A stretch of DNA of 64,000 nt from Bdellovibrionales bacterium (GTDB lineage Bacteria > Bdellovibrionota > Bdellovibrionia > Bdellovibrionales > UBA1609). The stretch covers positions 800,531-864,530 of the forward strand of contig CBDATD010000001.1 in the NCBI GenBank assembly GCA_965199935.1, given 5' to 3'. The translations under genes and the position numbers were made by a program. The notes beneath the pieces are model-generated. The model was not told where the DNA came from. It saw only the letters and a list, made by a program, of their open reading frames with translations, and did no database searches. Positions 26,851 to 52,734 of this stretch are shown here, one piece after another. The first letter of the stretch is position 1, and every line of letters begins with the position of its first letter.

Positions 26851-26853
26851 TCA

Positions 26854-31893: not shown

Positions 31894-31921
31894 CTTCGGC
31901 ATTCCTGCGGCAGTAGAGGGC

Positions 31922-32104
31922 TGTGAATATACTTGCGTGTACGAGAGCAAAGGGAGACAGAGATTCAAAGCTCAAACATGCGTTTTGCTACAGAGCAAAC
32001 TTTGTCTGCTCTGTTTCAAATCCGAACTTGTTTTCAGCCCCGTCCCCCCATCCTTTCTACGTTCTGCATCTCAAATCCGAACTCGTTTGAACCTCCGCCT
32101 GCCC
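31922..32104 (+). repeat. ~150-bp palindromic repeat family, one copy plus a 3' fragment
   Basis: Core AAAGCTCAAACATGCGTTTTGC..CAGAGCAAACTTTGTCTGCTCTGTTTCAAATCCGAACT. Confidence 0.9.
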
Positions 32105-32152
32105 GGTTTCTCTAAACCTCTCACATATACAACTGATTATTCGCACCCTCAT

Positions 32153-33313
32153 TCAAGCACTCAAAACTTTTTTAAGAGCTGTTTTCCAATGGTAGTAATG
32201 TATTCCATTAGTTTTTCTATTTTTTGGATCATTAGACCACAGTTGAGCTGTACAGGGAAGATTCCAAACAGCTGTCATTTTTCTTAATGTCTTTCCATGC
32301 TCTTGATTGACAATATCAGAGGATTTAATTTCCACCAATATCTCCTCTCCAGAAGGTTTTTGAATAATCAGATCTATCTCCTGTCCATTGCTGTCCCTTA
32401 AGTATGAAAACTTTAAATTTTTTTCATAATAGGAATTGAGCCTCATCAGCTCTAAAATAATAAATTGCTCAAAAGCCCGGCCGTATTCGTAATTTCCCTT
32501 CTCCAAAGGCATTTTTGTTTTGTTGAGTAAGGCCCGCGTGACTCCTGTATCAAAAAGAAAAAATTTTGGAGCTTGATTTTGTTGTTTTCTAACGGAGCGA
32601 TGAAAACTTTTTAAGTAAAACCCTAAATAAGTATCTGTCAAAATGTCAAAATAACTTTGTACTGTTGTATAATCTACTCTTAGTTCTCTTGCAATTTTTG
32701 AATAATTGATAATTTGGCCGCTGCATTGAGCTGATATTTCCAAAAAATCTTTAAAAGGTTTAACCTTCCTAATCAATTGTTCTACAAGCACTTCTTCTTT
32801 TAAATAGGTTTGTATGTAGGACTCTAAGTATCTGGATTTTTCCTTCATGCTCTTATATTGGATAAGCATTGGAAGGGAGCCTGCTTCCAAAACAGACTTT
32901 AGATTGAAAAAGTTTTCCCATTCAAGATGAGTTAAAGGATGAAGTTTAAAAGTGAAAAGGCGGCCGGCCAGCATATTGGCCATGCCTTTTTTTAATTTTC
33001 GAGCGCTGGAGCCTGTGAGTATGAATTGTATGTTTTTGTTTTTTTCAATCTCCAGATGAACAATATCCAAAAGTTTTGGAATTTTTTGAATCTCATCTAT
33101 AATAACTCTTTTGTAAGGAGTTTCTTCTATGAGTTGTGTGAGTAAGTCCGGATCTTGTCTAAAACGGCTCTCTTCTCTGAAAGACAATAAATTGATCCAT
33201 AGGTTTTGTTTCTTTGAAAAAGTCCGCTCCAACAGGGTGGTTTTTCCCGTTCCCCTGGCGCCAAAGAGAAAAAAACTATGTTTTCTATCTAGTTTTTGAA
33301 GTCTTTTTATCAT
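32153..33313 (-). CDS. AAA_14 ATPase with DUF4143 domain (paralog of 25391-26563)
   Basis: GARGTGKT, IDEIQKIP, LTGSSARK, KFFLFDTG, EIDL...LVEIK. Confidence 0.9.
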   Translation of the reverse strand: MIKRLQKLDRKHSFFLFGARGTGKTTLLERTFSKKQNLWINLLSFREESRFRQDPDLLTQLIEETPYKRVIIDEIQKIPKLLDIVHLEIEKNKNIQFILTGSSARKLKKGMANMLAGRLFTFKLHPLTHLEWENFFNLKSVLEAGSLPMLIQYKSMKEKSRYLESYIQTYLKEEVLVEQLIRKVKPFKDFLEISAQCSGQIINYSKIARELRVDYTTVQSYFDILTDTYLGFYLKSFHRSVRKQQNQAPKFFLFDTGVTRALLNKTKMPLEKGNYEYGRAFEQFIILELMRLNSYYEKNLKFSYLRDSNGQEIDLIIQKPSGEEILVEIKSSDIVNQEHGKTLRKMTAVWNLPCTAQLWSNDPKNRKTNGIHYYHWKTALKKVLSA

Positions 33314-33324
33314 AAATCTTTATA

Positions 33325-33384
33325 GAGTATAGATAAATTAAGGGTATAGTCAAGGAAATATCGGATAAATAAAGGATATAGTCA
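33325..33384 (-). promoter_or_regulatory. Putative sigma70 promoter with a tandem 21-bp motif
   Basis: Minus strand TTGACT-16 nt-TATACT; GATAAAT.AAGG.TATAGTCA twice at 32-bp spacing. Confidence 0.5.
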
Positions 33385-33414
33385 TGAAAATATTCGTGAA
33401 ATAGTTAAAAGACT

Positions 33415-34212
33415 TTGTTTGAACCTCTGCCTGCCTTTGTTCTTCGTGTGGCAACCTGGGTTTGTGAATATACTTGCGTGTACGAAAGCAAAGGCAGACA
33501 GAGATTCAAAGCTCAGACAGGCGTTTTGCCGCAGAGCAAACTTTGTCTGCTCTGTTTCAAATCCGAACTCGTTTGAATCTCCGCCTGCCTTTGCTCTTCG
33601 TGCGGCAGCATGGGTTTGTGAATATACTCGCGTGTACGAAAGCAAAGGCAGACGAATCTTCAAAGCTCAAACATGCGTTTTGCCACAGAGCAAACTTTGT
33701 CTGCTCTGTTTCAAAGCCGAACTCGTTTGAATCTCCGCCTGCCTTTGCTCTTCGTGCGGCAGCATGGGTTTGTGAATATACTTGCGTGTACGAAAGCAAA
33801 GGCAGACAGAGATTCAAAGCTCAGACAGGCGTTTTGCCGCAGAGCAAACTTTGTCTGCTCTGTTTCAAATCCGAACTCGTTTGAATCTCCGCCTGCCTTT
33901 GCTCTTCGTGCGGCAGCATGGGTTTGTGAATATACTCGCGTGTACGAAAGCAAAGGCAGACGAATCTTCAAAGCTCAAACATGCGTTTTGCCACAGAGCA
34001 AACTTTGTCTGCTCTGTTTCAAAGCCGAACTCGTTTGAATCTCCGCCTGCCTTTGCTCTTCGTGCGGCAGCATGGGTTTGTGAATATACTCGCGTGTACG
34101 AAAGCAAAGGCAGACGAATCTTCAAAGCTCAAACATGCGTTTTGCCACAGAGCAAACTTTGTCCGCTCTGTTTCAAAGCCGAACTCGTTTGAATCTCCGC
34201 CTGCCTTTGCTT
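33415..34212 (+). repeat. Tandem array of 154-bp palindromic units (x5.2; variant order A-B-A-B-B)
   Basis: TGGGTTTGTGAATATA at 33457, 33611, 33765, 33919, 34073. Confidence 0.96.
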
Positions 34213-34242
34213 TTCCTGCAAAAGCAATTCTTATGCCTCAAA

Positions 34243-34358
34243 ATATGATCAAAAATAAGATTTTTTGAGCGGATGATTGATGATATGATCAAAAATAAGC
34301 TTTTTTGAGCAGATGATTGATGATATGTTCAAAAACAGGCTTTTTTGAGCAGATGATT
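34243..34358 (+). repeat. 40-bp tandem repeat x3 with internal inverted repeat, just upstream of fic
   Basis: ATATG(A/T)TCAAAAA.....TTTTTTGAGC.GATGATT at 40-bp period. Confidence 0.9.
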
Positions 34359-35411
34359 ATGACCCATTTAGAGTATCCTACCTTGCAAAGTTTAGAAACT
34401 CCTCAGATTTTAAAGGAGTTGATTCCCGCTCACAAACATTTAGCTGAACTTAAAGGAATTATTCACAGCATTCCAAATGAAAAAATCCTGCTCAGCAATT
34501 TAACACTTCAAGAAGCCAAAGACAGCTCTGCTATTGAAAACATTATTACAACCCAGGACAGCTTGTATAAACACAATGCTATTCCTGATTTAAAAAATAA
34601 ACCCAATAAAGAAATCTATCATTATAGGGAAGCTTTAGAGTTTGGATACAAAAAAGTAAAATCAGATCAAGGAATTTCACTCAATACTATTTTAAGTATT
34701 CAAAAGATTATTGAACCCGATAAACCTGGTTTTCGCCGGGTTCCTGGAACAGTTATAAAAAATATATCCGAAAACAAAATTGTCTATACTCCTCCTTCTC
34801 CAGATCAGCTTCCCAAGTTTATGAACAAGTTAGAAAAATTTATAAATACAAACTCCCCAATGGATCCTATTGTAAAAATGGCTGTCATACACCATCAGTT
34901 TGAAAGCATACATCCATTTTATGACGGCAATGGAAGAACAGGGCGTATTTTAAATATTCTTTATTTGGTTCTAATGAATCTCTTAAACAGTCCTGTGCTG
35001 TTTCTCAGCCGGTACATTCAAAATAATAAATCCGATTATTATCGTTTACTTCAAAAAGTCAGAACAAAAAATGTTTGGAAAGAGTGGATCATCTATATCT
35101 TAAAGAGTGTTTCTAATACTGCGCAAAATACCACTGATTTGACTAAAAAAATTGACCGGCTGTTCAAAGAATACAAACATGTAATCCGCTCTAATCACAG
35201 ATTTTATTCTCAAGACTTAATCAACAGTATTTTTTCTCACCCTTATACTAAAGTCAAATTTTTACAGCAAGATATGAACATATCTCGAGCCACCGCCGGC
35301 CGCTACTTAGATGCTTTATGCGAAAACGATATACTTGAAAAACATAAACAAGGCAAAGATATCTATTATGTCAATACAAAACTTTTTGAACTGCTCAAAA
35401 ATTCTTCTTGA
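34359..35411 (+). CDS. Fic-family adenylyltransferase with C-terminal HTH-like region
   Basis: Canonical HPFYDGNGRTGR; N-terminal inhibitory-type SSAIEN; ISRATAGRYLDAL. Confidence 0.93.
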   Translation: MTHLEYPTLQSLETPQILKELIPAHKHLAELKGIIHSIPNEKILLSNLTLQEAKDSSAIENIITTQDSLYKHNAIPDLKNKPNKEIYHYREALEFGYKKVKSDQGISLNTILSIQKIIEPDKPGFRRVPGTVIKNISENKIVYTPPSPDQLPKFMNKLEKFINTNSPMDPIVKMAVIHHQFESIHPFYDGNGRTGRILNILYLVLMNLLNSPVLFLSRYIQNNKSDYYRLLQKVRTKNVWKEWIIYILKSVSNTAQNTTDLTKKIDRLFKEYKHVIRSNHRFYSQDLINSIFSHPYTKVKFLQQDMNISRATAGRYLDALCENDILEKHKQGKDIYYVNTKLFELLKNSS

Positions 35412-35484
35412 GCAGTAGATCCAGGTTGTCATATTTCCAAGTGCGAAACTCGGCAGTTTCTCTTGGCAGTTCCATCATCTTGCT

Positions 35485-35745
35485 TGTACGAAGAGCAAAG
35501 GCAGACGAATTTTCAAAGCTCAAACATGCGTTTTACTACAGAGCAAACTTTGTCTGCTCTGTTTCAAAGCCGAACTCGTTTGAACCTCCGCCTGCCTTTG
35601 CTTCTCCTAAGTCCGCTGTCTTTGCAGTCAGCTAGGCAGACAGAGATTCAAAGCTTAAATATGCGTTTTGTCGCAGAGCAAACTTTGTCTGCTCTGTTTC
35701 AAATCCGAACTCGTTTGAATCTCCGCCTGCCTTTGCTCTTCGTGC
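35485..35745 (+). repeat. Palindromic repeat family, two copies with alternative linker
   Basis: Cores at ~35515 and ~35650; linker TCTCCTAAGTCCGCTGTCTTTGCAGTCAGCTA also at ~39452. Confidence 0.92.
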
Positions 35746-36029
35746 AAAAGCAATTCTTATGCCTCAAAATATGATCAAAAATGATAGTGTCTGACCATTT
35801 TTGATTCGTCTGCCTTTTTTTGACAACCTTTTAACTCGGTTATTTTCGAGACCGGATTGAGCTGAGAAAAAATCTTAACTCTTTGAAAAAACTTAGAAAA
35901 TAGACAAGCACCGCCCTATAAAACAAGCTCAAAACCTCTTTATCTCAAGAGTTGGACATAAATTTGCACGTCTTTTTTATGAAATTTGAATGTGGGTCAA
36001 GTTTCAAGTAACCTATAGGGGAGGAAATT

Positions 36030-36758
36030 ATGTCTATGCAGAAAGAAAAATCGTCTCAACAAGAGATTGCTGAGATTTGGAAGCTGTTTCGGGAAACCCG
36101 CAAACAGATCCAGCTTATGTCTGACGAAACAAACCGCCAGATGAAAGACACTGATGAGCGAATGAAAGAAACCGATGAACGAATGAAAGACACTGATGAA
36201 CGAATGAAAGAAACTGATGAACGAATGAAAGACGCTGGTGAGCGGCTGAAAGAAACAGAACGAATTTTAAAAGAGGGGGCAAAAGAAACAAGAGAGCAGA
36301 TGAAAGAAACCGACCGCCGGCTGCGAAAGCTCGATTATTTATTCACCGGTCATTGGGGAAAACTCATGGAAGCTCTAACAGCAGGGGGGTTGAAGACCGC
36401 TTTGCAGGAAAGAGATATTCAAGTCACAGGAGTTTGCTCTAACGCAGAAAGAATCTACAAGGATGAAAGAAGAGAGTTTGATGTTATAGCGACCAACGGA
36501 GAAGAGCTTGTTGTGGTGGAAGTCAAAACCACTTTAAAACTAGAGCAAGTGCAGTATTTTTTAGAAAGTATTCGGGATTTTAAAAATTATTTCCCTGAGT
36601 ATAGAGATAAAAAAGTTTACGGGGCTATGGCTTATTTGAAGTCCAATGAAGGGGCCTCTCAGTATGCTGAGAAAAAGGGTTTGTTTATTTTAAATCCTGT
36701 GGGGAATATCATCAAAGTTGTCAACTCTGTCCATTTTCGCCCTGTTCAAATAGATTAG
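36030..36758 (+). CDS. Coiled-coil heptad-repeat protein with C-terminal PD-(D/E)XK nuclease-like domain (DUF3782-like), copy 1
   Basis: (D/E)TDERMK repeats; WGKLMEAL; EFDVIA...VVVEVK; GGGGAGG RBS. Confidence 0.8.
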   Translation: MSMQKEKSSQQEIAEIWKLFRETRKQIQLMSDETNRQMKDTDERMKETDERMKDTDERMKETDERMKDAGERLKETERILKEGAKETREQMKETDRRLRKLDYLFTGHWGKLMEALTAGGLKTALQERDIQVTGVCSNAERIYKDERREFDVIATNGEELVVVEVKTTLKLEQVQYFLESIRDFKNYFPEYRDKKVYGAMAYLKSNEGASQYAEKKGLFILNPVGNIIKVVNSVHFRPVQID

Positions 36759-36782
36759 ATGCTCCCAAAGCTTTATCATCAT

Positions 36783-36990
36783 CCTGGGTTTGTGAATATA
36801 CTCGCGTGTACGAAAGCAAAGGCAGACAGAGATTCAAAGCTCAAACATGCGTTTTGCCACAGAGCAAACTTTGTCTGCTCTGTTTCAAAGCCGAACTCGT
36901 TTGAACCTCCGCCTGCCTTTGCTCTTCGTGCGGCAGCCTGGGTTTGTGAATATACTTGCTTTTCCTGCAACAGCATGGGTTTGCTGAATA
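36783..36990 (+). repeat. Palindromic repeat family, one full copy plus linker fragments
   Basis: Matches array unit; GGGTTTG(C)TGAATAT repeated. Confidence 0.92.
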
Positions 36991-37235
36991 TTTGCAGGTG
37001 TTTGGCACAGCCGCTTGAAACGCTGGATCAGGCAATGTATGGGAGCAGTATTTTATTATGTTGTTTTAGAAGAGGCGGATTTTTCTGGGTTTTTATAAAG
37101 AGGAGAAAAAGTCTGTTGTATTTTGAGACACTTTTTTGTTCTGAGCTTTAAGTTTTGTTTAAGGGAGCTTGTTTTTCCTTAAGTTTGCAGGGGCCGTGTC
37201 CGATTGTTGTTTTAAGAATAATAGTGGAGGTTCTT

Positions 37236-37424
37236 ATGAAAAAACGTATTAAAAAACATATTACGGATCTGCTCAAAGATGAGTCCGGGCAAGGCACCAC
37301 CGAGTATATCCTCATCCTCGTTGGAGTTGTCGCTTTGGGTTTTTTGTTCAAAGACAAAATAGTGAGTGTCGTTAGTGGAAAAATGGACAGTTTGGGAACA
37401 GACATCAGTTCTTTTACACCATAG
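37236..37424 (+). CDS. flp: Flp type IVb pilin
   Basis: KDESG-QGTTEYILIL Flp motif; GGAGG RBS. Confidence 0.9.
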   Translation: MKKRIKKHITDLLKDESGQGTTEYILILVGVVALGFLFKDKIVSVVSGKMDSLGTDISSFTP

Positions 37425-37467
37425 GTGAAAAATGATTATAACACAGTATTGTTATTGAAAAAATAAA

Positions 37468-37701
37468 ATGATTACAGAATATGTTCTTTTAATGGTGCTT
37501 TCTGTGGCAATGGTGGCGACTGTTCTTACTGGCGGTACCCCCCTCCTGTCCGGCCAGCCGGCCGGAGGCATCCACGGCATCTTCACTGAAGGTATTCCCC
37601 AATTAGCTATTCGTATGGAAAAACATTTGATGACCGGCTATCCTTTTTGCGTTCAGTATCCTCAAGGAGGATCGAGACAGGGTTGTTCTTGGCAAGACTA
37701 G
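37468..37701 (+). CDS. Flp/TadE-like minor pilin with no visible prepilin leader
   Basis: MITEYVLLM hydrophobic helix, C-terminal Cys pair; in-frame stop four codons upstream. Confidence 0.65.
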   Translation: MITEYVLLMVLSVAMVATVLTGGTPLLSGQPAGGIHGIFTEGIPQLAIRMEKHLMTGYPFCVQYPQGGSRQGCSWQD

Positions 37702-37777
37702 ATATTTCACCTCTATACATAATGCCGCCACCTATGGGACCACCGCCGATTTGACAGTATTATCATTCATCATTATT

Positions 37778-38145
37778 CGTCTGCTCTGCCTCAAATCCGA
37801 ACTCGTTTGAACCTCTGCCCGCCTTTGCTCTTCATGTTGCAGCATGGGTTTGTGAATATACTCGCGTGTACGAAAGCAAAGGCAGACGAATTTTCAAAGC
37901 TCAAACATACGTTTTGCCACAGAGCAAACTTTGTCTGCTCTGTTTCAAATTCAAACTCGTTTGAATCTCCGCCTGCCTTTGCTCTTCGTGCGGCAGCATG
38001 GGTTCGTGAATATACTCGTGTGTACGAAAGCAAAGGCAGACGAATCTTCAAAGCTCAGACATGCGTTTTGCCGCAGAGCAAACTTTGTCTGCTCTGTTTC
38101 AAATCCGAACTCGTTTGAATCTCCGCCTGCCTTTGCTCTTCGTGC
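37778..38145 (+). repeat. Palindromic repeat family, ~2.4 tandem copies
   Basis: Matches array unit at 154-bp period. Confidence 0.93.
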
Positions 38146-38429
38146 AAAAGCAATTCTTATGCCTCAAAATATGATCAAAAATGATAGTGTCTGACCATTT
38201 TTGATTCGTCTGCCTTTTTTTGACAACCTTTTAACTCGGTTATTTTCGAGACCGGATTGAGCTGAGAAAAAATCTTAACTCTTTGAAAAAACTTAGAAAA
38301 TAGACAAGCACCGCCCTATAAAACAAGCTCAAAACCTCTTTATCTCAAGAGTTGGACATAAATTTGCACGTCTTTTTTATGAAATTTGAATGTGGGTCAA
38401 GTTTCAAGTAACCTATAGGGGAGGAAATT

Positions 38430-39137
38430 ATGTCTATGCAGAAAGAAAAATCATCTCAACAAGAGATTGCTGAGATTTGGAAGCTGTTTCGGGAAACCCG
38501 CAAACAGATCCAGCTTATGTCTGACGAAACAAACCGCCAGATGAAAGACACTGATGAGCGAATGAAAGAAACCGATGAACGAATGAAAGACACTGATGAG
38601 CGAATGAAAGACGCTGGTGAGCGGCTGAAAGAAACAGAACGAATTTTAAAAGAGGGGGCAAAAGAAACAAGAGAGCAGATGAAAGAAACCGACCGCCGGC
38701 TGCGAAAGCTCGATTATTTATTCACCGGTCATTGGGGAAAACTCATGGAAGCTCTAACAGCAGGGGGTTTGAAGACCGCTTTGCAGGAAAGAGATATTCA
38801 AGTCACAGGAGTTTGCTCTAACGCAGAAAGAATCTACAAGGATGAAAGAAGAGAGTTTGATGTTATAGCGACCAACGGAGAAGAGCTTGTTGTGGTGGAA
38901 GTCAAAACCACTTTAAAACTAGAGCAAGTGCAGTATTTTTTAGAAAGTATTCGGGATTTTAAAAATTATTTCCCTGAGTATAGAGATAAAAAAGTTTACG
39001 GGGCTATGGCTTATTTGAAGTCCAATGAAGGGGCCTCTCAGTATGCTGAGAAAAAGGGTTTGTTTATTTTAAATCCTGTGGGGAATATCATCAAAGTTGT
39101 CAACTCTGTCCATTTTCGCCCTGTTCAAATAGATTAG
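38430..39137 (+). CDS. Coiled-coil PD-(D/E)XK nuclease-like protein, copy 2 (one heptad shorter)
   Basis: Near-identical to 36030-36758; 235 versus 242 aa. Confidence 0.8.
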   Translation: MSMQKEKSSQQEIAEIWKLFRETRKQIQLMSDETNRQMKDTDERMKETDERMKDTDERMKDAGERLKETERILKEGAKETREQMKETDRRLRKLDYLFTGHWGKLMEALTAGGLKTALQERDIQVTGVCSNAERIYKDERREFDVIATNGEELVVVEVKTTLKLEQVQYFLESIRDFKNYFPEYRDKKVYGAMAYLKSNEGASQYAEKKGLFILNPVGNIIKVVNSVHFRPVQID

Positions 39138-39158
39138 ATGCTCCCAAAGCTTTATCAT

Positions 39159-39612
39159 CCTGGGTTTGTGAATATACTTGCGTGTACGAAAGCAAAGGCA
39201 GACGAATCTTCAAAGCTCAGACATGCGTTTTGCCGCAGAGCAAACTTTGTCTGCTCTGCCTCAAATCCGAACTCGTTTGAATCTCCGCCTGCTTTGCTTT
39301 TCGTGCGGCAGCCTGGGTTTGTGAATATACTTGCGTGTACGAAAGCAAAGGCAGACGAATCTTCAAAGCTCAGACATGCGTTTTGCCGCAGAGCAAACTT
39401 TGTCTGCTCTGCCTCAAATCCGAACTCGTTTGAATCTCCGCCTGCTTTGCTTCTCCTAAGTCCGCTGTCTTTGCAGTCAGCTAGGCAGACGAATCTTCAA
39501 AGCTCAAACATGCGTTTTGCCACAGAGCAAACTTCGTCTGCTCTGCCTCAAATCCGAACTTGTTTGAACCTCCGCCTGCCTTTGCTTTTCCTGCAACAGC
39601 AGGGCTGTGTGA
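39159..39612 (+). repeat. Palindromic repeat family, three tandem copies
   Basis: Three cores; last joined by the alternative linker. Confidence 0.93.
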
Positions 39613-39685
39613 ACAAGTCTGCAAACTGCAGATATACTTTAGATCAAGTCTTTTCAGACTTGAATATCGTTGCTATATTTAATTT

Positions 39686-40192
39686 ATGACGGGTGAATCT
39701 TTTCTTGTTCTAGTCTCTGGTTTGATACTGGTGCTGGCTTTAGCGGCGGATCTGAAAACTAGAAAGATTCATAATAAACTGTTGTTATGCCTCATTCCTG
39801 TAGCTTTAACCGCCGTTGTTCTCACTCAAGGATGGACAGCTCTTTTCAGAACCAGCCTTCTCTCCGGCCTGGGTGCTTTAGCGTTTTCTATGCCTCTTTA
39901 CTTTTTTAGAATCATTGGAGGGGGCGATTTAAAACTTTACGTGACCGTCGCCCTTACTTGGAATTTATCCACTGTTTTCTGGTCTTTGGCATTGGCTCTC
40001 CCTTGGGGTGGATTTTTAGGTCTCATCCGCTCCTGTCTTCAGGGCCGAGCTTATATTATCTGGACGAATATGCTGAGTTTGATCAAATTTAAAAAAGTAG
40101 AGAAAACAGCCCTTCAGACTTTTCCCTTTTCTGTCGTTTTATTATTAGGGTGGCTGAGTTATCGGGTTTTGAATAAAATAGGCAGTCTGTGA
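39686..40192 (+). CDS. cpaA: Prepilin peptidase A24 (CpaA/TadV-like)
   Basis: ADLKTRKIHN, GGGDLKL aspartate motifs, multiple TMs. Confidence 0.88.
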   Translation: MTGESFLVLVSGLILVLALAADLKTRKIHNKLLLCLIPVALTAVVLTQGWTALFRTSLLSGLGALAFSMPLYFFRIIGGGDLKLYVTVALTWNLSTVFWSLALALPWGGFLGLIRSCLQGRAYIIWTNMLSLIKFKKVEKTALQTFPFSVVLLLGWLSYRVLNKIGSL

Positions 40193-40437
40193 TGTTAGCA
40201 AGCAGACAGTTGTGCCGGCCTTCCGCTGTTGCGGGAGAGGCGTGCAAAGTGGAGTGATTGCAAAAACGGTGTGTATGAAAAGTCCGAGGGACAAACGGAA
40301 GCAGGAACCCAGTGTGTAAACGAGCCGTATATAAGGAGCAGTCTCTGATTTTGCAAAGGTGGCGAGAGTGCGAGGCGGCGTGAAAACGCAGGGTTCTGCA
40401 AAAAAGCAGAAGTCCAGTTTTGAAGAGAGAACAAAGA

Positions 40438-41815: not shown

Positions 41816-41954
41816 AAGGATTGCTCATGCGTTTTGCTGTGGGCTTTCAAAGATGGAGGCTCAGCACAACGGCTGGCCCCCTGCTTCCGCAGGGGCGGTG
41901 CGTGTGTAAAGCGGAGTGATTGCAAAAACATACATGAAAAGTCTAGGGGGGGTA

Positions 41955-42039
41955 AAACTGCAAACAAGTTCGGCTTTGAGGCTGAGCGGGCCGACAGCTT
42001 GCTCTGCTACAAAAACGCATGCCTGCAGTTTGCAGGTTT
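41955..42039 (-). repeat. Diverged, inverted copy of the palindromic repeat core
   Basis: Reverse complement CTGCAAA...CATGCGTTTTTG..GCAGAGCAA...CCTCAAAGCCGAACTTGTTTGCAG. Confidence 0.8.
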
Positions 42040-42206
42040 GTTCACACCAGATGAACTGCTCCTACAAGAGGGGTGTTTTGACAGCGGTCTTGGAAAAGAC
42101 ACCCCTTATACAAGGGCTTTGAATCCGTAAAAGAAATTAATGAAAACGTCCTAAAATTCCGAAAAATCATAGAGGGAAAAGCACAATTTTCAAGGGGGTT
42201 TTCAGG

Positions 42207-43034: not shown

Positions 43035-43046
43035 GGCGGTGTTTCT

Positions 43047-44492: not shown

Positions 44493-44503
44493 AGGAATTT
44501 CAA

Positions 44504-46720
44504 ATGAGTTCTATGAATTATATTATTGGAGTCATTGGAGGCAAAGGCGGAGTGGGCAAAAGTGTTTTCACGGCGAACTTGGCCTTGTCTGCGCAAAAAG
44601 AGCTAAGAACCCCCTGCCTGCTGATAGATCTAGACAGCAAAAGCTGTGGTGATCAAAATATTATTATGGGGCTGAAGCCTCTGAAAACAGTTTCTGAGTT
44701 TATCAATTACAAAGGGATTATTTCACAGACCTCTCTGAAAAGTATTTTATCTCAACACAACTCAGGCCTGGCCTACTTGGGGGCTGTCAAAAGTCCGGAG
44801 CAAACCCTCCACGGAGACTCTCGTTTATTTTCTCAACAACTGATGAGCTTGGAGCAGAACTACAAATATATTTTTGTGGATTTGGGCTGTGAGATTGGAG
44901 ATTTACAGTTAGAAGCTCTGAATCAAGTCAGTGCTTTACTGGTGCTTGTGACGCCTGAAATTTTGGTGATTAACCAAACAAGAAGAATTTTAAATGAACT
45001 CATGACTGCCACTCTCCCCACACAGCTGTTGCAGATTATTGTGAACAAACATACATCTTCGGCTGTTCAAGCATCGACGATTCAACAAGCCCTTAAACTT
45101 CCCATTTTAAATTTTGTTCCAAATGATGAGGCTGTTTCCGCCCAAGCTCTCTCTTCTTCAAGGCCTTTTGTTTTATCTCATCCCAATACGGCAGTCGCCC
45201 GCTCCTATCATCAGATTATAAGGCAGTTGACAGGGGGCATTTTGCAGAAAAATAAACAGCTGTCCCGTCCGAAGATGAGTCCTCTCAAAAAAACATCGGA
45301 AAGCCTGCAAAAAGAGGATCTTTCGGCGGATGAAAATTTGGATTCCAATACTCTTTTAAAATTACAAGTGCATTCAGAACTCATTCAAGAAATGGATTTA
45401 AACAAGGACCTGACGAAAGCAAAAACTAAAAAAGCCACAGACGAGATTCGCACAAAAGCCGGACGCATTGTGACCCGCCTGGTGGATGAGAAAGCAAAAC
45501 ACCTGGCCAGACAGGAGCGGGGGCAGATCATCAAGCAAGTCTTGGATGAAGCTGTGGGTCTGGGGGCTTTGGAAGAGCTGTTGGCGGATCCTTCCGTTAC
45601 AGAAATTATGGTGAACGGGGCTTCTCAAATTTACTGCGAAAAAAGCGGTAAAATTCAGCTGTCCCCCGTGACTTTTACCTCTAACATGCATTTGAAAAAT
45701 GTGATCGAAAGAATTGTCACTCCCTTAGGAAGACGCATTGATGAAAAAACTCCCTATGTGGACGCCCGTTTGGCGGACGGAAGCCGTGTGAATGCTGTCA
45801 TTGAACCTCTCTCTATTGACGGGCCTGCGGTCACTATTAGGAAGTTTCCCAGTGAAAGAATTGTCATTAAAGATTTGGTTCAGAGGTTTGGCTCTTTAAC
45901 AGAAGCTATGGCGGATTTTTTAAAAATTTGTGTGGAGCAGGGTTTGAACGTCATTATTTCCGGAGGCACAGGTTCGGGTAAAACAACATTGTTGAATGTA
46001 ATGTCTTCTTTTATTTCCGACAAAGAGAGAGTTATCACAGTGGAGGATGCGGCAGAATTACAGCTGAAGCAAACACATGTGGTGCGTTTGGAAACAAGAC
46101 CCGCCAACATGGAGGGGACAGGGGCCATCACCATCCGGGATTTGATTCGAAATTCCCTTCGTATGCGCCCCGACCGAATTGTGGTGGGAGAGTGCAGAGA
46201 CGGCGCGGCCTTGGATATGCTGTCTGCAATGAATACAGGCCATGACGGCTCTATGACAACTGTGCATGCGAACAACCCCAGAGAAGCTGTCGCCAGACTG
46301 GAGACTTTGTGTTTAATGGCCGGAATGGAGCTGCCGGCGAAAGCCATTCGAGAGCAGATCGCCGGCGCCGTTAATTTAATCGTGCAGATCAGCCGTTTAA
46401 GTGATGGGAGCCGTAAAATTAAAAGCATTACAGAGGTGGCGGGGATGCAGGGGGATGTCGTGACTTTACAGGAAATTTTCAGGTTTAAAGAATCCGGTTT
46501 CGATAAGAACAGAAAAATAATAGGCCAGTTTCAAGCAATGGGCAGGATCCCTACATTTATCGAGCGTTTTGAACAAAGGGGCATTCATATTCCAAGAGAT
46601 TTGTTCACCACTCAGCAGTCTGTGAAATCCTCCGGTAAAGCCGGAGCCGCCGGCATAAAACCTAAGCCGGCCCCGGCCAGAGTGATTCGCCCTCTTCCTC
46701 CCAAAAAGGCGGCCTCATGA
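44504..46720 (+). CDS. tadA: TadZ/CpaE-like ATPase fused to TadA/CpaF assembly ATPase
   Basis: N-terminal GGKGGVGKS; C-terminal GGTGSGKTT, LRMRPDRIVVGE, TGHDGS. Confidence 0.92.
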   Translation: MSSMNYIIGVIGGKGGVGKSVFTANLALSAQKELRTPCLLIDLDSKSCGDQNIIMGLKPLKTVSEFINYKGIISQTSLKSILSQHNSGLAYLGAVKSPEQTLHGDSRLFSQQLMSLEQNYKYIFVDLGCEIGDLQLEALNQVSALLVLVTPEILVINQTRRILNELMTATLPTQLLQIIVNKHTSSAVQASTIQQALKLPILNFVPNDEAVSAQALSSSRPFVLSHPNTAVARSYHQIIRQLTGGILQKNKQLSRPKMSPLKKTSESLQKEDLSADENLDSNTLLKLQVHSELIQEMDLNKDLTKAKTKKATDEIRTKAGRIVTRLVDEKAKHLARQERGQIIKQVLDEAVGLGALEELLADPSVTEIMVNGASQIYCEKSGKIQLSPVTFTSNMHLKNVIERIVTPLGRRIDEKTPYVDARLADGSRVNAVIEPLSIDGPAVTIRKFPSERIVIKDLVQRFGSLTEAMADFLKICVEQGLNVIISGGTGSGKTTLLNVMSSFISDKERVITVEDAAELQLKQTHVVRLETRPANMEGTGAITIRDLIRNSLRMRPDRIVVGECRDGAALDMLSAMNTGHDGSMTTVHANNPREAVARLETLCLMAGMELPAKAIREQIAGAVNLIVQISRLSDGSRKIKSITEVAGMQGDVVTLQEIFRFKESGFDKNRKIIGQFQAMGRIPTFIERFEQRGIHIPRDLFTTQQSVKSSGKAGAAGIKPKPAPARVIRPLPPKKAAS

Positions 46721-47595
46721 GTTTTTTAGTTCAATATGATTTGCTGTTGTATGCGGTGTTTGGCGTCTGCGTGTTTTTTGTCAGCTATAGATTTTTGCCG
46801 TCCTTTTTGCGTTTTGCCTACGATAAAACCTTTTCTTCTCAAAAGGAAATTATAGAAATTATAGAGAAGATGAGGATTCAAAAAGATCATAAAAAAACAG
46901 TCATGTATTTATGGTTTTTAAGCCTGGCTATGGGGGTTTTGCCGGTGATTGTCCTTTTGCCTCATTTCTTGGCAGGGCTGGTTGCTGGAGTGATCTGCTT
47001 TTTTATGACATGGATTGGAGTTCGCTCTGTGGTCCGCTCCCTTTGGGGCCGCTATTGCAGTCTGGCTGTCGAGCAAATGCGGGAGGGCATGGTTTTAATG
47101 GCGAATGGAATGAAAGTGGGCCTTAGTGTGACGCAGGCTATGGAAAGAGTCATTGAGGGAATGAAAGGGCCTCTCAGCAGTGAATTTACTTTGGTTTTGA
47201 ACAAAATTAAATTGGGGATGAGTGTGGAAGAAGCTATGACGGAAATGGCGGAGCGGGTTCCTATGCCGGATATGATTATGATGGTGACTTCAGTGAATAT
47301 TCTGAAAGAGACAGGGGGAAATTTGGCGGAAACGTTTGCAGTTATTGCGGAGACCATACGCTCCAGACAAAAAGTGGAAAGTAAAATTAAAGCTTTGACC
47401 GCTCAGGGGATGATGCAGGCAAAAATTATCTCTGCCGTGCCTGTAGTGATTCTAGGTTTGCTTTATTTTATCAACCGCTCTTACGCAGTTGTATTATTTA
47501 CCACAGCCTTAGGGTGGGTTTGCCTGCTTATTATAGCTGTTTTGGTAATTATTGGTGGAAAAGTGATGAAGAAAGTGGCTACAATAGACGTATAA
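46717..47595 (+). CDS. tadB: Tad inner-membrane platform protein
   Basis: ETGGNLAE, IKALTAQG. Confidence 0.88.
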   Translation: MSFLVQYDLLLYAVFGVCVFFVSYRFLPSFLRFAYDKTFSSQKEIIEIIEKMRIQKDHKKTVMYLWFLSLAMGVLPVIVLLPHFLAGLVAGVICFFMTWIGVRSVVRSLWGRYCSLAVEQMREGMVLMANGMKVGLSVTQAMERVIEGMKGPLSSEFTLVLNKIKLGMSVEEAMTEMAERVPMPDMIMMVTSVNILKETGGNLAETFAVIAETIRSRQKVESKIKALTAQGMMQAKIISAVPVVILGLLYFINRSYAVVLFTTALGWVCLLIIAVLVIIGGKVMKKVATIDV

Positions 47596-47632
47596 CTGAT
47601 GGAATTTGTTTTTTTGAAAGTAAGGAGGAGAG

Positions 47633-49299
47633 ATGAGGGTTTTAATGTTTCTAGCGCTGGGTTTTGCTTTCTCAGCAGGGGCGCTTGTAGATACAAAAAG
47701 TGGAAACTATAAAAAGACATTTGTTGACTTTGATCTCAAGGGGCTGTGTTTCCTCTGGTTATGGAGAGGACTTACAACTCCAGGTCTTTGTATCGGGGGC
47801 TGTTTGGCATGGGATGGTGTTCAAACATAGAAACAAGGGTGCATGTGCTTCCAGATAATTCTGTTCAGTTGACTGAATGCGGGGGCGGTCAAGAGATTTT
47901 ATTTTTAACTAAAAACTCCAGGCAAAATGTCTCTGCGCAAATAGAGCAGATTGTACAAGCGGTTAAAAAGCAAAATAAAAAGCTGTCGAGTGCTTATTAC
48001 AAACAGTTGAGGCAAAAATTAACTAAAAGCCACGTTCTAAGGAATGAATTTTTAAAAGCTTATAAAGTCAGCGGGGAGGCGAAACCGGGAGCGGTGTACT
48101 TTGCTGAAGGCCGAACCAGCGACTCCCTTTCTTTCAGCAAAAAAGGATGGTTTAAAAGAACACTGTCCAATGGAGTTCAGCAGTTTTTTGCAAAAAACAG
48201 CGGGAGGCTGATTCAAATTTCAGATAAATCCGGCAACTACATTAAAATTGTATGGAAAAAAGACCAGCCTCAATACATCACAGATAATAAAGGGCGAAGG
48301 CTCGTCTTCAGCTACAAGCAGGGGCAGATTGCTTCTATTAAGGGGCTGGGGAAGGTTCAGGCCTCATACGAGATTAAAGGTGAAAATTTGGTTCGTGTAG
48401 TCAATAAAGACGGAAACTACAGCCATGCTTACGATGATCTTCACAATTTAACTCAGACTGTGTATCCAGGCGGCACGAGGAAAGATCCGGCAGTGGAAAA
48501 ATTAAAATACAACAAAAAGAAGGACTGGGTGACTAGTTTTGAAAATCAAAGAAGGTGTGTGGAGACATATAAGTATGAGACCAATCCAAAAAATCCAAAC
48601 CACTATTGGACGGATGTAGAAAAAAAGTGCGGCAAGGTGGTTACAAATATCAGCAGGTATGAATTTTGGAATAAAAAAGGTTCCGACGGAGTTATGTACC
48701 TGCACCGGGCCAGGCAAAAAGTTAATGGAGAGATTCGTGATGTGACTTACCATCCTAAATTTAGAAGGGTTTCTCATCTCACTCAAAATGGAGTGCGTAC
48801 CCAATACAATTACTATGGTGAAGGGGTGTTCCAAGGTTTGCTCAGGGAAAAGGTGAATCGCAGTCAAAAAACTTCTTTCGCAAAATACCATCGCAAATGT
48901 TTAAAACCTTTGTCTGTGGGAACTCAAAGGCTTTCCAACAAGAAAGTAGTGAATCAGGAGACTATAAAAATTCAGTATGATTCAGCCAGCTGTTTAATGA
49001 GCAGGGTGTCCCGCTCTGACGGCCGCTGGGTGAGTTTGTCTCATGATGAGAAAGGGCGTATTGATCAGATGACGGATCAGTCCGGCAAAGTCATTCTGGT
49101 GTCTTACAATGATCGGGTGAATAAGCCGCAGAAAATCACTCAAAAAGGCGTGGGTTCTATCGAAATTGAGTACGACAAAAAAGGAGTGTCTAAAGGCTGG
49201 AAAAACAGCAACGATCCTGTTATCATGAGCCAGGTGATGTCGATGTTTAACGGGCTTATGGAGATTATAACTCCTGTGGCTCAAGAAATGAATATCTGA
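47633..49299 (+). CDS. Secreted DUF6531/RHS-YD repeat protein (Bd0109-like), split by a frameshift at G4 47740-47743
   Basis: Signal peptide plus VDTKSGN in one frame; ERTYNSR..GLFGMGW and YD repeats in the next; one extra G joins them. Confidence 0.82.
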
Positions 49300-49308
49300 G
49301 GATGGCTT

Positions 49309-49548
49309 ATGAAATTTCTTTTGGTCTTAGTTGGTTTGTGGACTGTTTCGGTTTTTGCCAAAGGAGACAAAGCAACTGAGGCGGAAGGCCCCGGCAGGTG
49401 TGCTTATTGCGATGAACATACTGTGCGTATAGATGAAAGGGATATAGAGACAAACCCCTCTGCTTTGACTCTTCTTCATGTTGCTCAATCTGCTGAATCG
49501 GAGAAAGCTCCGCCGAAAAAAACAAAATCCTCTCAAGGTGTTCAGTAA
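49309..49548 (+). CDS. Small secreted CxxC protein, positional equivalent of Bdellovibrio hit (Bd0108)
   Basis: Signal peptide, CAYC, polar low-complexity mature region, directly after the RHS gene; GAGG RBS. Confidence 0.6.
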   Translation: MKFLLVLVGLWTVSVFAKGDKATEAEGPGRCAYCDEHTVRIDERDIETNPSALTLLHVAQSAESEKAPPKKTKSSQGVQ

Positions 49549-49581
49549 ACACCGCCCCTGAGTACGTGATAACGTCTTTTC

Positions 49582-49950
49582 CATAAAAACGGGGCAGATA
49601 GATCTGTAAAGCTCAAACATGCGTTTTGCCACAGAGCAAACTTTGTCTGCTCTGTTTCAAAGCCGAACTCGTTTACAGCTCTACCTGCCCTGTTTTTCTA
49701 TGTACATATGCCGCTTCCACATTGACACTGTTTTCATAAAAGCAGGGCAGGTAGATCTGTAAAGCTCAAACATGCGTTTTGCCACAGAGCAAACTTTGTC
49801 TGCTCTGTTTCAAAGCCGAACTCGTTTACAGCTCTACCTGCCCCGTTTTTCTATGTACATATGCCGCTTCCACATTGACACTGTTTTCATAAAAGCAGGG
49901 CAGATAGATCTGTAAAGCTCAAACATGCGTTTTGCCACAGACAAATTTTG
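49582..49950 (+). repeat. Subfamily of the palindromic repeat, 153-bp period x2.4
   Basis: GCTCAAACAT at 49611, 49764, 49917; same core, different outer stem and linker. Confidence 0.93.
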
Positions 49951-50140
49951 TCCTTAGGTGTTTGAGTGATAGACAATTTTTCTCATTTTTGCCCTGTCAA
50001 ACACAGGCCCCCTGGAAGATGGCAATAACTCTAACTCATTGATTTTTCTAAATTATTTAACATTTTTCTCAAACGGTGTCTGCTTTGTCCCCTGATTTGC
50101 AGGTAATAAAGCAGGGGTTTTTTGCACAAGGAAGTGAAAT

Positions 50141-50773
50141 ATGTCTTATGATTTGTATCAGCAGACAATGAAAAGATTAAGCCAGACTTTAAGCGATAAG
50201 TTTTCAATTCCTATTCGTTATTTCAATCGGCCTGGCCCCCAGAGTACATCTATAGTGATTCCTCTCATTCTAAGCAGACAGACTGCTGGTCATCTTCAAG
50301 TAGATTCTTCTGTTTCTACAGAACTTCTGGATGAAATCTATCACCACGTTCAATGGACCCTCAGCTCTTTGGAAGATTTATTTCAGAAACACGGGGTTTC
50401 TTTTCAATCCCGTGAAGAAAGCTTTCCGGTGTGGATTTCTGCTTTGTCCGATCAAAGAGCTTTAAAAACAGCTTTGGATTTTTACGAAAGATCTTGTTTA
50501 AGATCTTTTGTCCATATCCATGCCTCCGTGTTTGACGCTGGACTCTTTTCCTCTGATTTAAAGAAAACTTTAATTTTTATTTCTTCTGCAGAACAGCTTT
50601 CAAAAGAGAGCCAACTCTTCTTAGCCCACTATTTAAGAACAAACAAAGAAGGGCCTTCTTTGATTTTTTCTTCTCCTTTATCTCTGGAGCCGGCTCAAAA
50701 AAAGATTGTCCCTTCGCTGTTGGAGTGTTTTACTTCTCATTGGTACAGCTCTGATGAACGGCTTAATAGATAG
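50141..50773 (+). CDS. Hypothetical protein, possible degenerate AAA/sigma54-activator-like domain
   Basis: TLIFISSAEQLSKESQLFLAHYL resembles a decayed Walker B region. Confidence 0.5.
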   Translation: MSYDLYQQTMKRLSQTLSDKFSIPIRYFNRPGPQSTSIVIPLILSRQTAGHLQVDSSVSTELLDEIYHHVQWTLSSLEDLFQKHGVSFQSREESFPVWISALSDQRALKTALDFYERSCLRSFVHIHASVFDAGLFSSDLKKTLIFISSAEQLSKESQLFLAHYLRTNKEGPSLIFSSPLSLEPAQKKIVPSLLECFTSHWYSSDERLNR

Positions 50774-50776
50774 CAT

Positions 50777-51709
50777 ATGAAACAATTCTTAGATCAGCAA
50801 CTCGGCTCCGCCTGGACGATCAAAAAAATCATGGGTGACAGCGGCGAGCGAAGATACCATCGGGTGGCTGTAAAAGACGGCACCTGCATCTTAGCGTCTT
50901 ATCCTCCAAGCGCAAAAAAAAGCTTGAAATCTTTTTTGGATGTACAGGGCCTGCTGTATCAAAAAAACTTCTCAGTCCCAAAAATATTAGCCCAAGACAA
51001 CAACAAGGGCTTTGTCTTGCTTGAAGATATAGGTTCTTTAAGTTTGGAGCGGTATTATTTGGACCGCCGCCGGCTGAATTTTCATAAAATGGCTTTGGAT
51101 TTTCTCTGGAAGATGCAAAAGGAGATTCGCTCCGAAGACTTAAAAACAGCCTTTACATGGAATCAAGGACTGCATGAAATGATTTTTGCTTATCAACAGC
51201 TGAACCAAGCTTTTTTAGAAGATGATAAGAAAAAATTATTTGAGGAGTTTAAAAATATCAACAATACACTGGTTCAGCCTCCTTTGACTTCCAGCCATAG
51301 GGATTTTCACTCTAGAAATTTATTTATTCATAAAGATCAGATTTATATCATTGATTTTCAGGACGCTGGTTCCTATCCTATTTACTATGATGCAGTCAGT
51401 TTGATGGAGGATCCTTATGCGGGCCTCTCCGATCAGGAGAAACAAGGATTGATGGATTATTATCAGAAAAAATGGAATCAAGAAATCAATAGGAGGCAGT
51501 TTCAATTAACGACGATACAGAGGCTGTTTAAAGCTGTCGGCAGTTTTATGAGTTTTTTTCATCTTAGAGGGCAGAACAGTCATTTGAAATATGTCCACCC
51601 CTCTCTGAAAAAAGTAGAGTCTGTGCTTGTTCAGATGGATGAGCACCCTTATTTTTTAAAATACATTCAGTCGATCTTAAACCATAAAGTACTTTTGAGT
51701 TATTCATGA
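50777..51709 (+). CDS. APH-family phosphotransferase, probable anomeric MurNAc/GlcNAc kinase (AmgK-like)
   Basis: GDSGERRYHR, HRDFHSRNL, IDFQDA, YDAVSLMED; coupled to a nucleotidyltransferase. Confidence 0.85.
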   Translation: MKQFLDQQLGSAWTIKKIMGDSGERRYHRVAVKDGTCILASYPPSAKKSLKSFLDVQGLLYQKNFSVPKILAQDNNKGFVLLEDIGSLSLERYYLDRRRLNFHKMALDFLWKMQKEIRSEDLKTAFTWNQGLHEMIFAYQQLNQAFLEDDKKKLFEEFKNINNTLVQPPLTSSHRDFHSRNLFIHKDQIYIIDFQDAGSYPIYYDAVSLMEDPYAGLSDQEKQGLMDYYQKKWNQEINRRQFQLTTIQRLFKAVGSFMSFFHLRGQNSHLKYVHPSLKKVESVLVQMDEHPYFLKYIQSILNHKVLLSYS

Positions 51710-52719
51710 AAGCTCTCCTGCTATGCGCCGGCCGAGGCTCCCGCCTGCATCCTTATACAAGAGCTTGTTCTAAAATAGCTCTTCCTTTTCTAAATATTCC
51801 GATAGCAGGCTACCCTTTAAAGGTTTTGGAGGATATAGGAGTTCGTCATTTGCTGGTGAATACTCACCATTGGCCTCAACAGGTTGTAAACACCATCGAG
51901 TGTCTCATCTCTTCTGTGCGGGAGAGGGCTGAGCCGGCTTCACGTTTTTCACACATGAAAAAGCCGAGCAGACAGACCTTCAAAGCTCAAACATACGTTT
52001 TGCCGCAAAACCGCCTTCCTATTCACCCTGTACCCCCGCAAAAGTCAGGCAGAAAAGTTCATAGTGCACCCTGCGCCGCCCCTGCGAAAGCAGGAATCCA
52101 GAGTCTTTCTTTTTCTTATGAACCGCGCTTGCTGGAGGGTTTGGGCTCTTTAAAAAAAAATAAAAGTTTTTTTGCAGGAGAAGAAAATTTGATTTGCTTC
52201 AACGGGGATTCTGTTTTCCTTTGCGGCGGTTTTTTTCCTCAAATGCTGGCTCAGCACCGGCAAAAAAAAGCTTTAATGACTTTTTTGTGCGCCCCTTTCA
52301 AAGAGAGAGCCGGTCATTTATGGGCGGATAAAAAAGGAAGAGTCATTTTGAAAGGGCGAAGCCCCTCCGATCAAAAATGTTTTTTTGCAGGTTTTACCTT
52401 GATCCATCATCAGTGCTTTTCTTTATTCAAAGATACGGACAACCATTTGTTTAGAGATTTTGTAAAGAGGCATCACCAAGATTGCTTTGTTTATATGCAG
52501 AAAGATTTGAAATTTTTTGAACTTGGCTCTTTGTCCAGTTATATGAAATCGCTGAACACCTGTGCGGAGTATTTGAAAGACCCTTTGTCTAAAGAGGGAA
52601 AACTTTTGCGTCAAATATTGGAGCACTGCCTGCCTGCTGAGTTTATGCAGGACGATAGTCATTTTCGTCTGGAATATTTACGCAGGCAGTTCTTTTCACA
52701 GGGTGGAATTGTCAAATAA
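51706..52719 (+). CDS. Sugar-phosphate nucleotidyltransferase (MurU-like) with in-frame repeat-derived insertion
   Basis: MKALLLCAGRGSRLHP...K, NTHH, NGDS; ~60-aa insert. Confidence 0.82.
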   Translation: MKALLLCAGRGSRLHPYTRACSKIALPFLNIPIAGYPLKVLEDIGVRHLLVNTHHWPQQVVNTIECLISSVRERAEPASRFSHMKKPSRQTFKAQTYVLPQNRLPIHPVPPQKSGRKVHSAPCAAPAKAGIQSLSFSYEPRLLEGLGSLKKNKSFFAGEENLICFNGDSVFLCGGFFPQMLAQHRQKKALMTFLCAPFKERAGHLWADKKGRVILKGRSPSDQKCFFAGFTLIHHQCFSLFKDTDNHLFRDFVKRHHQDCFVYMQKDLKFFELGSLSSYMKSLNTCAEYLKDPLSKEGKLLRQILEHCLPAEFMQDDSHFRLEYLRRQFFSQGGIVK

Positions 52720-52734
52720 AATAAAGAAACAGGG

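Follow-up and report, generated by a model that had tools for sequence, protein, structure and literature searches.

The best-understood palindromic repeats have a partner enzyme: REP sequences have RAYT transposases, NTS repeats have Ssn nucleases and integron attC sites have the integrase IntI. REPINs, together with the REP sequences, are said to go with RAYT transposases. The attC sites are recognised by their fold and only one strand is the substrate; they are antisense to the cassette genes, are on the leading-strand template in chromosomal arrays, and bracket accessory genes. Correia/nemis, ERIC, RUP and BOX elements are imperfect palindromes of 100-150 bp that are found at gene ends and show insertion polymorphism between relatives. 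NTS/SRM repeats are oriented hairpins with non-palindromic conserved flanks, clustered in many copies around particular genes and read as single-stranded DNA by Ssn nucleases, according to Chenal et al. 2025 (PMC11893778). Here we describe a repeat family found in a stretch of 64,000 nucleotides from a Bdellovibrionales bacterium. This stretch, the window, is C1:800531-864530 of the source genome G000 (1.44 Mb, two contigs, C1 and C2, 40% G+C, 94% complete). The repeat is a non-coding unit of 120-150 bases that folds as a long hairpin around a constant inner loop.

The family resembles several of these systems in part. As for REPINs and REP sequences, the repeats are short, intergenic, non-coding and form long hairpins, they are present in tens of copies whose number varies between relatives, and they presumably act as folded single strands. 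However, in REPINs the arms (the REP units) are conserved and the loop is free, while here the arms are free and the centre is constant. With the NTS/SRM repeats of PMC11893778 the family shares oriented hairpins in many copies clustered around particular genes, but the motif is another one and the unit is four to five times longer. It differs from attC sites in that there is no IntI, the loci are dispersed, there are arrays free of cassettes, and the centre rather than the base of the stem is conserved. With the Correia/nemis, ERIC, RUP and BOX elements it has in common the length, the position at gene ends and the insertion polymorphism between relatives. Compared with MITEs (small transposable elements with inverted repeats), there are no conserved terminal inverted repeats, no target-site duplication was seen, and no parent insertion sequence with matching ends was found. 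The pattern of constraint is inverted relative to the best-understood systems: the stems are free and an asymmetric loop is fixed.

The explanation that we tentatively prefer, and place a little short of an even chance, is that this is a lineage-specific, structure-dependent palindromic repeat, comparable to REPINs, MITEs or the hairpin targets of single-strand nucleases, that acts as a folded DNA strand for a trans-acting reader, and that it stands outside all of these families.

In the window the inner hairpin, CAGAGCA-N9-TGCTCTG, has 18 matches with at most 3 mismatches, while 2.45 +/- 1.75 are expected and none of 100 shuffles reaches 18. Sixteen of these have 0-1 mismatch and lie on the plus strand from 31991 to 49807; the remaining two, at 23345 and 40925 (3 mismatches each), appear chance-like. 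Repeat detection returns a 153-nt unit 16 times, its 5' part 18 times and its 3' part 19 times, and the spacing of units within arrays is 134-154 nt. A search with a profile built from 15 full copies gives 16 full plus-strand copies, one diverged minus-strand copy and four fragments. A preliminary description of the window, made from the sequence alone, had counted about 17 full copies, in agreement with the 16 plus the diverged inverted one. The three complementary flank types that it listed are also present: TTCAAA/TTTGAA with AGCAAAGGCAG/CTGCCTTTGCT, CTGTAAA/TTTACAG with GGGCAGGTAGA/TCTACCTGCCC, and CTGCAAA/TTTGCAG in the inverted copy. Its consensus was written on the plus strand; the strand that we give for individual features below is the better-folding one.

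Read on the minus strand of the window, the unit starts with an outer stem whose sequence is free and whose length is about 20-30 bp here and reaches 56 bp in relatives. Then follows the constant internal loop, which is asymmetric, with CGAGTTCGG in its 5' part and ACG-N-ATGTYTGAG in its 3' part, and which encloses an inner hairpin that is again free in sequence. The arms are near-perfect and specific to a locus or a subfamily, with a median length of 29 bp (up to 56 bp).

Covariation was studied in two alignments of copies from metagenome-assembled genomes (MAGs), as are all genomes compared here. Both the copies and the genomes are related, so the counts do not represent independent events. 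The first set, aligned with no reference to structure, contains 63 distinct copies, which come from G000, G001, G002 and G019. In a rod model 84.7% of the cells are paired, compared with 69.8% after shuffling (0 of 500 shuffles as high) and 33-44% when the partners are slid, and double-sided changes are found at 26 of the 32 pairs. The second set, in an alignment fitted to the covariance model, has 22 copies taken from 19 further genomes of the order. It varies on both sides at 33 of 35 pairs, and 96.1% of the cells are paired versus 59.9% in shuffles. The UUUG/CAAA helix, constant in the first set, varies on both sides in the second, while the blocks CGAGTTCGG and CG-N-ATGTYTGA are nearly constant in these 22 distant copies. 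A cloverleaf fold could be ruled out, as it is the outermost TTCAAA, and not the internal TCAAAG, that changes together with the 3' TTTGAA: the outermost pair is replaced by TTTACAG/CTGTAAA, TTTTCAG/CTGAAAA or TTTTGAG/CTCAAAA while the internal TCAAAGCC stays unchanged. The covariation is strong in both alignments and exceeds the shuffled controls and, in the first set, the slid-partner control as well. Selection on a folded single strand, as proposed in the preliminary description, is borne out: covariation of the stems is seen inside the genome, from genome to genome and over the order as a whole, and the internal loop is constant.

The two strands do not fold equally well. The minus strand is lower in folding energy in 85 of 92 copies (means -60.3 versus -48.9 kcal/mol, RNA parameters). 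For one unit the minus and plus strands have -32.0 and -27.1 kcal/mol with DNA parameters, and -62.6 and -46.5 with RNA parameters. Among the distant copies the strand of the covariance model is the more stable in 19 of 22. Further, the non-Watson-Crick cells on the plus strand comprise 161 A.C and 41 G.T, numbers that overstate the independent events because the copies are related; A.C is the more frequent at 21 pairs and G.T at 5. This excess places the wobbles on the complement. The local mutation bias, an excess of G and T on the plus strand, predicts the opposite, so we read the asymmetry as selection on the minus strand. The folded strand is therefore the complement of the one that the preliminary description had written out. 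Taken together, stems that covary, two strands that are not equivalent and an asymmetric loop that is fixed indicate that the folded single strand is what is read.

In the phylum sample the family is found in a single order. BLAST matches cover the 67-nt core but not the arms; there are 22 in G001, 7 in G019 and 1 in G002, with weak similarity in G018, while the congener G003 and the other 35 of 40 relatives have no match. Across the four congeners there are 50, 22, 1 and 0 BLAST matches, and the copy number ranges from 0 to 82. The minus-strand covariance model, whose E-values are rough, has matches in 22 of 151 genomes of the order, which belong to 18 of 70 genera and to 8 of 13 families and contain up to at least 27 copies each, as in G027, and none at E <= 1e-5 in 127 genomes sampled from the phylum outside the order. 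In the genomes of 185,579 species the exact two-block pattern is present in at least 111 stretches, and 77 of the 80 listed among these are titled as Bdellovibrionales, Bdellovibrionaceae, Pseudobdellovibrionaceae or Oligoflexia MAGs. An exact 23-nt pattern gave no match in a search of genome contigs. Rfam has no match in the window at gathering scores, and relaxing the limit to E up to 10 gives nothing beyond miRNA-like and Chlorobi-RRM matches below threshold; for 15 loci from other genomes it returned a tRNA and nothing else. A literature search listed no paper on Bdellovibrionales repeats. Neither Rfam nor the papers listed point to an already described family. Covariation this rich is unusual, and it extends over a whole order of mostly uncultured, partly host-associated bacteria.

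In the source genome the profile has 118 matches, which are reduced to 82 non-overlapping copies (63 full) once the reverse-strand echoes of the palindrome are removed. These 82 copies are spread over 45 loci, 20 of which are arrays of 2-5 units, and occupy 8.3 kb altogether. For one copy, neither the orthologous site of G002 nor that of G001 holds an element. Ten loci of the relatives have both flanks syntenic in the source genome, and two of them hold an element there, with different arms and similar cores. In G027 the arms differ between copies at most positions and the pairing is retained.

Rearranged copies are common. Half units break at the inner hairpin, some units combine arms from two subfamilies, and inverted copies are nested within the inner hairpin of other copies. 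In one copy, downstream of a paralogue of a protein family described below (family X), the core is seemingly flipped between its arms. Direct repeats that flank units are pieces of neighbouring units. At one locus the gene of a small secreted protein lies between two direct copies. A search for an autonomous copy, in which a gene would separate two halves whose arms match, recovered nothing beyond adjacent units in pairs. Two DNA runs, with short-read contigs that break at the repeats, gave no excision product, and the apparent joints arise from cross-mapping of one copy to another. A copy number that swings between relatives, sites that are empty, arrays, and copies that are broken, nested or hybrid indicate a selfish or recombinogenic repeat rather than RNA genes, and the suggestion of a non-autonomous mobile element in the preliminary description fits these observations.

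Two further peculiarities of copies in other genomes should be mentioned. G105 (L133 1501-1636) and G143 (L142 1501-1646) have double elements, in which a complete inverted mini-copy with arms, both loop blocks and a short hairpin replaces the inner hairpin of the larger copy. The copies of G027 (L146-L165) contain an extra conserved block, ...CGCTGTTCCCAGTC..., that is one-sided and lies about 60 nt upstream of the first loop block of the folded strand.

If the preferred explanation is right, the units would spread via a folded single-stranded DNA stage or by fold-back copying, and the same process would maintain the complementarity of the arms. The constant loop would be the site for a trans-acting protein. 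Once direct copies are present they could drive unequal crossing-over and so generate the tandem arrays; this crossing-over may also bracket, duplicate and relocate accessory genes, as in the 7.8-kb island of the window.

The orientation of the repeats in the source genome follows replication. The GC skew puts the origin near C1:590 kb, where dnaA is found (599.8 kb), with C2:350 kb as the approximate terminus. The sense of the plus strand, as written in the preliminary description, is that of the leading strand at 38 of 45 loci (p = 3e-6 versus 0.5, and 4e-4 versus the gene bias of 59%), which means that the better-folding strand is on the leading-strand template. Four of the five loci where both neighbouring genes point the other way still follow replication. 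Elsewhere this is not seen. Using the local 20-kb skew, orientations with and against replication number 8 versus 8 in G001, 4 versus 2 in G019 and 0 versus 1 in G002, and the 27 listed matches of G027, all on a single contig, change strand seven times along it. The dependency is found in the source genome only, and the bias is absent in G001, G019 and G027. A possible cause would be selection against the stronger hairpin on the lagging-strand template where the strands fold unequally.

Several points weigh against the explanation that we prefer. The single-stranded DNA stage is postulated. The G.U-type wobbles, the two constant GA dinucleotides that face each other and the order-wide conservation of the loop suit a functional RNA equally well. 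The two of ten loci that are common to two species with the core kept suggest constraint on the locus, or homogenisation. Single-strand elements of the IS200/IS605 type are expected on the lagging-strand template, while the better-folding strand in the source genome is on the leading-strand template. Neither a target-site duplication nor sharp element ends could be defined, and the empty sites are too diverged to place the ends. Finally, no partner enzyme is found: RAYT, integron integrase, an Ssn-like GIY-YIG protein and family X all fail in co-occurrence.

Among the other explanations, a structured non-coding RNA family made from the minus strand, with the loop as a protein-binding motif, is unlikely, though the most probable of them. 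The motif could be kink-turn-like, with C-G, G.A and A.G beside a GUYU bulge. A kink-turn has tandem sheared G.A/A.G pairs beside a 3-nt bulge between two helices and usually an L7Ae-type binder. RNAalifold, run on the minus strand, adds pairs inside the loop, including a C-G that becomes U-A in 10 sequences, and there two constant GA steps face each other beside the GUYU bulge. By these motif rules, on which the reading depends, this resembles a kink-turn, although the bulge here has 4 nt and not 3. Covariation in every helix favours an RNA, and so does that C-G to U-A exchange beside the GA/GA step (10 double changes in the first set, 4 in the second), as do the concentration of wobbles on one strand, a loop constant over an order and the retention of two of ten loci between species. 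On the other hand, such a family would hardly vary from 0 to 82 copies among close relatives or have truncated, nested and hybrid members. There is no recurring sigma-70-like promoter in the units on either strand, and the folded strand lacks a constant orientation to its neighbours, with a co-directional gene upstream at 17 of 45 loci in the source genome, 15 of 22 in near relatives and 10 of 16 in distant genomes. Its transcription would oppose replication head-on at 38 of the 45 loci. Moreover, Rfam has no match, and no L7Ae-family protein (PF01248) is found in the source genome. The repeats might instead be gene-end elements, long bidirectional hairpins that end or stabilise transcripts and for which mobility is secondary, as has been proposed for REP and ERIC elements. 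Nearly all copies are intergenic and at 20 of 22 near-relative loci they face at least one gene 3' end; the plus-strand sense trails a co-directional gene at 31 of 45 loci in the source genome and 13 of 16 in distant genomes, and few loci lie between divergent genes (9 of 45, 2 of 22 in near relatives, 1 of 16). These figures depend on crude calls of open reading frames made for this analysis, in which 28 of 99 elements overlap a called frame by at least 10 nt, and many such frames span the whole element and may be spurious; the overlaps might otherwise hint that arms derive from gene ends by copying. A simple scan (stems of at most 20 pairs) detects no T-run terminator signature at any unit, a plain terminator needs neither a constant asymmetric loop of 9 + 13 nt nor a preferred strand, and arrays of up to five units as well as half units do not fit. 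This role is improbable. Somewhat more improbable still is that the palindromes are by-products of fold-back or copy-back errors in replication and repair, which extend and homogenise inverted repeats with no sequence-specific reader. The long, near-perfect, locus- or subfamily-specific arms and the one core that seems inverted between its arms would be expected, but the two constant, non-complementary loop sequences, kept across 8 families amid changing surroundings, are left unexplained, and so is the strand asymmetry.

The three remaining explanations each come with a known enzyme. That the unit is a recombination site similar to attC, in a cassette system similar to an integron, where the structure of the bottom strand would be recognised, is very improbable. 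It is suggested by the conserved structure with free stem sequence, by the folded strand, which in the source genome is on the leading-strand template and runs antisense to the majority of neighbouring genes, and by direct copies that bracket accessory genes. However, it is largely refuted by the lack of an integron integrase: none is found among the four tyrosine recombinases of the source genome (one XerC-like, one XerD-like, two generic), the best scores of the IntI model are 111.6 and 91 bits, compared with a cut-off of 265, and the top matches are to XerC/XerD models. Further, there are 45 dispersed loci instead of one array, there are arrays that carry no cassettes, the conserved part is central and not at the stem base, and the R''/R' boxes of the stem base, RYYYAAC/GTTRRRY, are matched at 5 of 7 positions each by the best candidates found by reading, TTCAAAC and GTTTGAG. 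The least probable of all is a REP/REPIN mobilised by a RAYT (HUH Y1) transposase, a possibility raised in the preliminary description, which was right that the window holds no cognate transposase. It draws on the hairpin-forming intergenic repeats and on Y1_Tnp (PF01797) being common in the order (116 of 151 genomes). This domain has no match in the source genome (94% complete), though, and is not enriched with the element (15 of 22 genomes with it, 101 of 129 without it). It is missing from 7 of the 22 element-bearing genomes, among them the source genome with its 82 copies and G027 with at least 27. The variable arms and conserved centre are also the reverse of a REP. As for an SRM/NTS-like target of a site-specific single-strand nuclease of the Ssn type (GIY-YIG), it is about as doubtful as the attC-like site. 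In concept oriented hairpin repeats clustered around genes fit (PMC11893778), and the source genome has both a GIY-YIG frame of 174 aa (C1:141005-141526, the only small GIY-YIG protein there) and separate NTS-like hairpins. Yet the NTS consensus CGTCATTCCCGCGMAVGCGGGAATCYRG, in the form printed in PMC11893778, is absent from the element and has 2 genome matches at up to 3 mismatches, neither in an element; the NTS-like hairpins are a different, shorter family, in which only 6 of 35 loose matches have an element no more than 120 nt away, and homologues of the GIY-YIG protein are present in 3 of 151 genomes of the order, compared with 22 of 151 for the element.

The NTS/SRM-like hairpins (e.g. 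CGTCATTCCTGCGGAAGCAGGAATCCAG) are found in the window at 23960-23987 and about 52082-52104, and at C2:111086. Together with the GIY-YIG frame they possibly form an Ssn-type system distinct from the long element.

Other candidates for a partner were also rejected. A TnpB/Cas12f-like protein is represented by a single sub-threshold match inside a frame of 1267 aa. The sole reverse transcriptase of the source genome is that of a type IX retron, and the closest copy of the repeat is 50 kb away; this retron (C1:949806-953396, L093) has RT_IX (331 aa) with HTH_IX and HEPN_IX partners, as identified by PADLOC models. Among 147 frames that flank elements in named MAGs no family recurs in more than three genomes.

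Two protein families are frequent near the repeats of the source genome. Family X has 9 paralogues there without a Pfam match, including those at window 36030-36758 and 38430-39137, at C1:930889 and within C2:426064-446781. Its members have an N-terminal coiled coil with KETDR-type repeats that vary in number and a C-terminal motif, EFDVIA...VVVEVKT, that looks like a PD-(D/E)xK nuclease. Eight of the nine are among the two open reading frames on either side of a repeat locus (p = 2e-7), and a repeat lies within 1.5 kb of seven. The family is present, in multiple copies, in 7 of 41 related genomes, and the four that have clear copies of the element are all among them. As a partner it was rejected: it is absent from the element-bearing G027, G005, G009, G021, G030 and G034, and none of 10 family-X loci of other genomes holds an element. 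Family Y consists of acidic, Cys-rich proteins of 298-368 aa with a signal peptide, encoded at C1:17265, 57549, 467283 and 469257 and at C2:347378 and 348384. Five of the six adjoin repeat units, and we take the family as a co-resident of plastic regions and not as a partner.

A wider reading concerns the loop itself. It is conceivable, although rather unlikely, that CGAGUUCGG / ACG-N-AUGUYUGAG acts as the functional core of single-strand elements that form a new class found throughout the Bdellovibrionales, either a structured RNA or a folded DNA site, whose reader would be a protein family other than HUH/RAYT, Ssn or integron integrase. In that case the replication-polar arrangement in a reduced genome would result from activity at the replication fork or from protection against it. 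With the obvious partners tested and failed, the family is a clean target in the search for a new single-strand-specific system of nucleic acid and protein, or for a structured RNA. The repeat also seems to shape the gene content of a 1.44-Mb genome, where it brackets accessory genes and may duplicate them, and its replication-following orientation offers a way to study how a reduced genome copes with long hairpins.

In the window most copies lie in an accessory island of 7.8 kb (31894..39685, without strand) between yceG and the prepilin peptidase gene, which is punctuated by repeats on the minus strand. The first, 31937..32055, is a full unit with hybrid arms (the 5' arm of the TTCAAA type, the 3' arm of the TTTTCAG/CCCCCC type). 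It is followed by an orphan half unit at 32061..32109, the 3' half as read on the plus strand (model positions 72-118), whose arm matches the 5' arm of the preceding unit. Five full units are in tandem at 33478..34218 with a period of 154, and two at 35485..35744 with a period of 138 and a second type of spacer. One full unit, 36806..36930, starts 48 nt past the stop of the family-X gene at 36030-36758. Then come an orphan half unit at 37776..37836 (model positions 65-125) and two full units at 37866..38144 with a period of 154. The last array, three full units at 39182..39593 with periods of 153 and 136, begins 45 nt past the stop of the family-X gene at 38430-39137.

Outside the island, the diverged copy at 41936..42041 is the only one on the plus strand; it has CTGCAAA/TTTGCAG arms and its core retains ...CATGCGTTTT... 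and ...AAAGCCGAACTTGTTT.... Further downstream, again on the minus strand, are two full units of the CTGTAAA/TTTACAG subfamily at 49584..49852 (period 151), a half unit broken within the inner hairpin at 49887..49952 (model positions 5-70), and a fragment within a long open frame at 51963..52008 (model positions 12-57).

The island encodes an AAA_14/DUF4143 ATPase, a Fic protein and the two family-X genes, and a segment of 2.4 kb with a family-X gene is duplicated inside it. The corresponding interval in G002 is about 1.2 kb long, free of repeats, and has only homologues of the small frames at 37.1-37.7 kb; the island is an insertion relative to that congener. Three direct repeats of about 42 nt (GATGATATGATCAAAAATAAG.TTTTTTGAGC.) at 34240-34350 are found immediately upstream of the Fic-domain gene (34317-35411).

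The island is followed by a Tad/Flp pilus cluster (39686-55011) with a prepilin peptidase, RcpC/CpaB, a secretin, a fused ParA-like and TadA-type ATPase, TadB/C and TadE/G-like proteins. The cluster is broken up by the gene of an RHS-repeat protein (47746-49299) and by the repeat units at 49.6-52.0 kb. Elsewhere in the window, a 93-nt sequence is present in two copies 202 nt apart with 98% identity (26577-26871); the second copy overlaps the end of tRNA-Leu(GAG) (26854-26937) and has an att-like appearance. Tandem repeats at 11751-11990, 24001-24366 and 27520-27699 are a Lys-rich coding repeat with 45-nt units, a 183-nt duplication and a 90-nt duplication, respectively.

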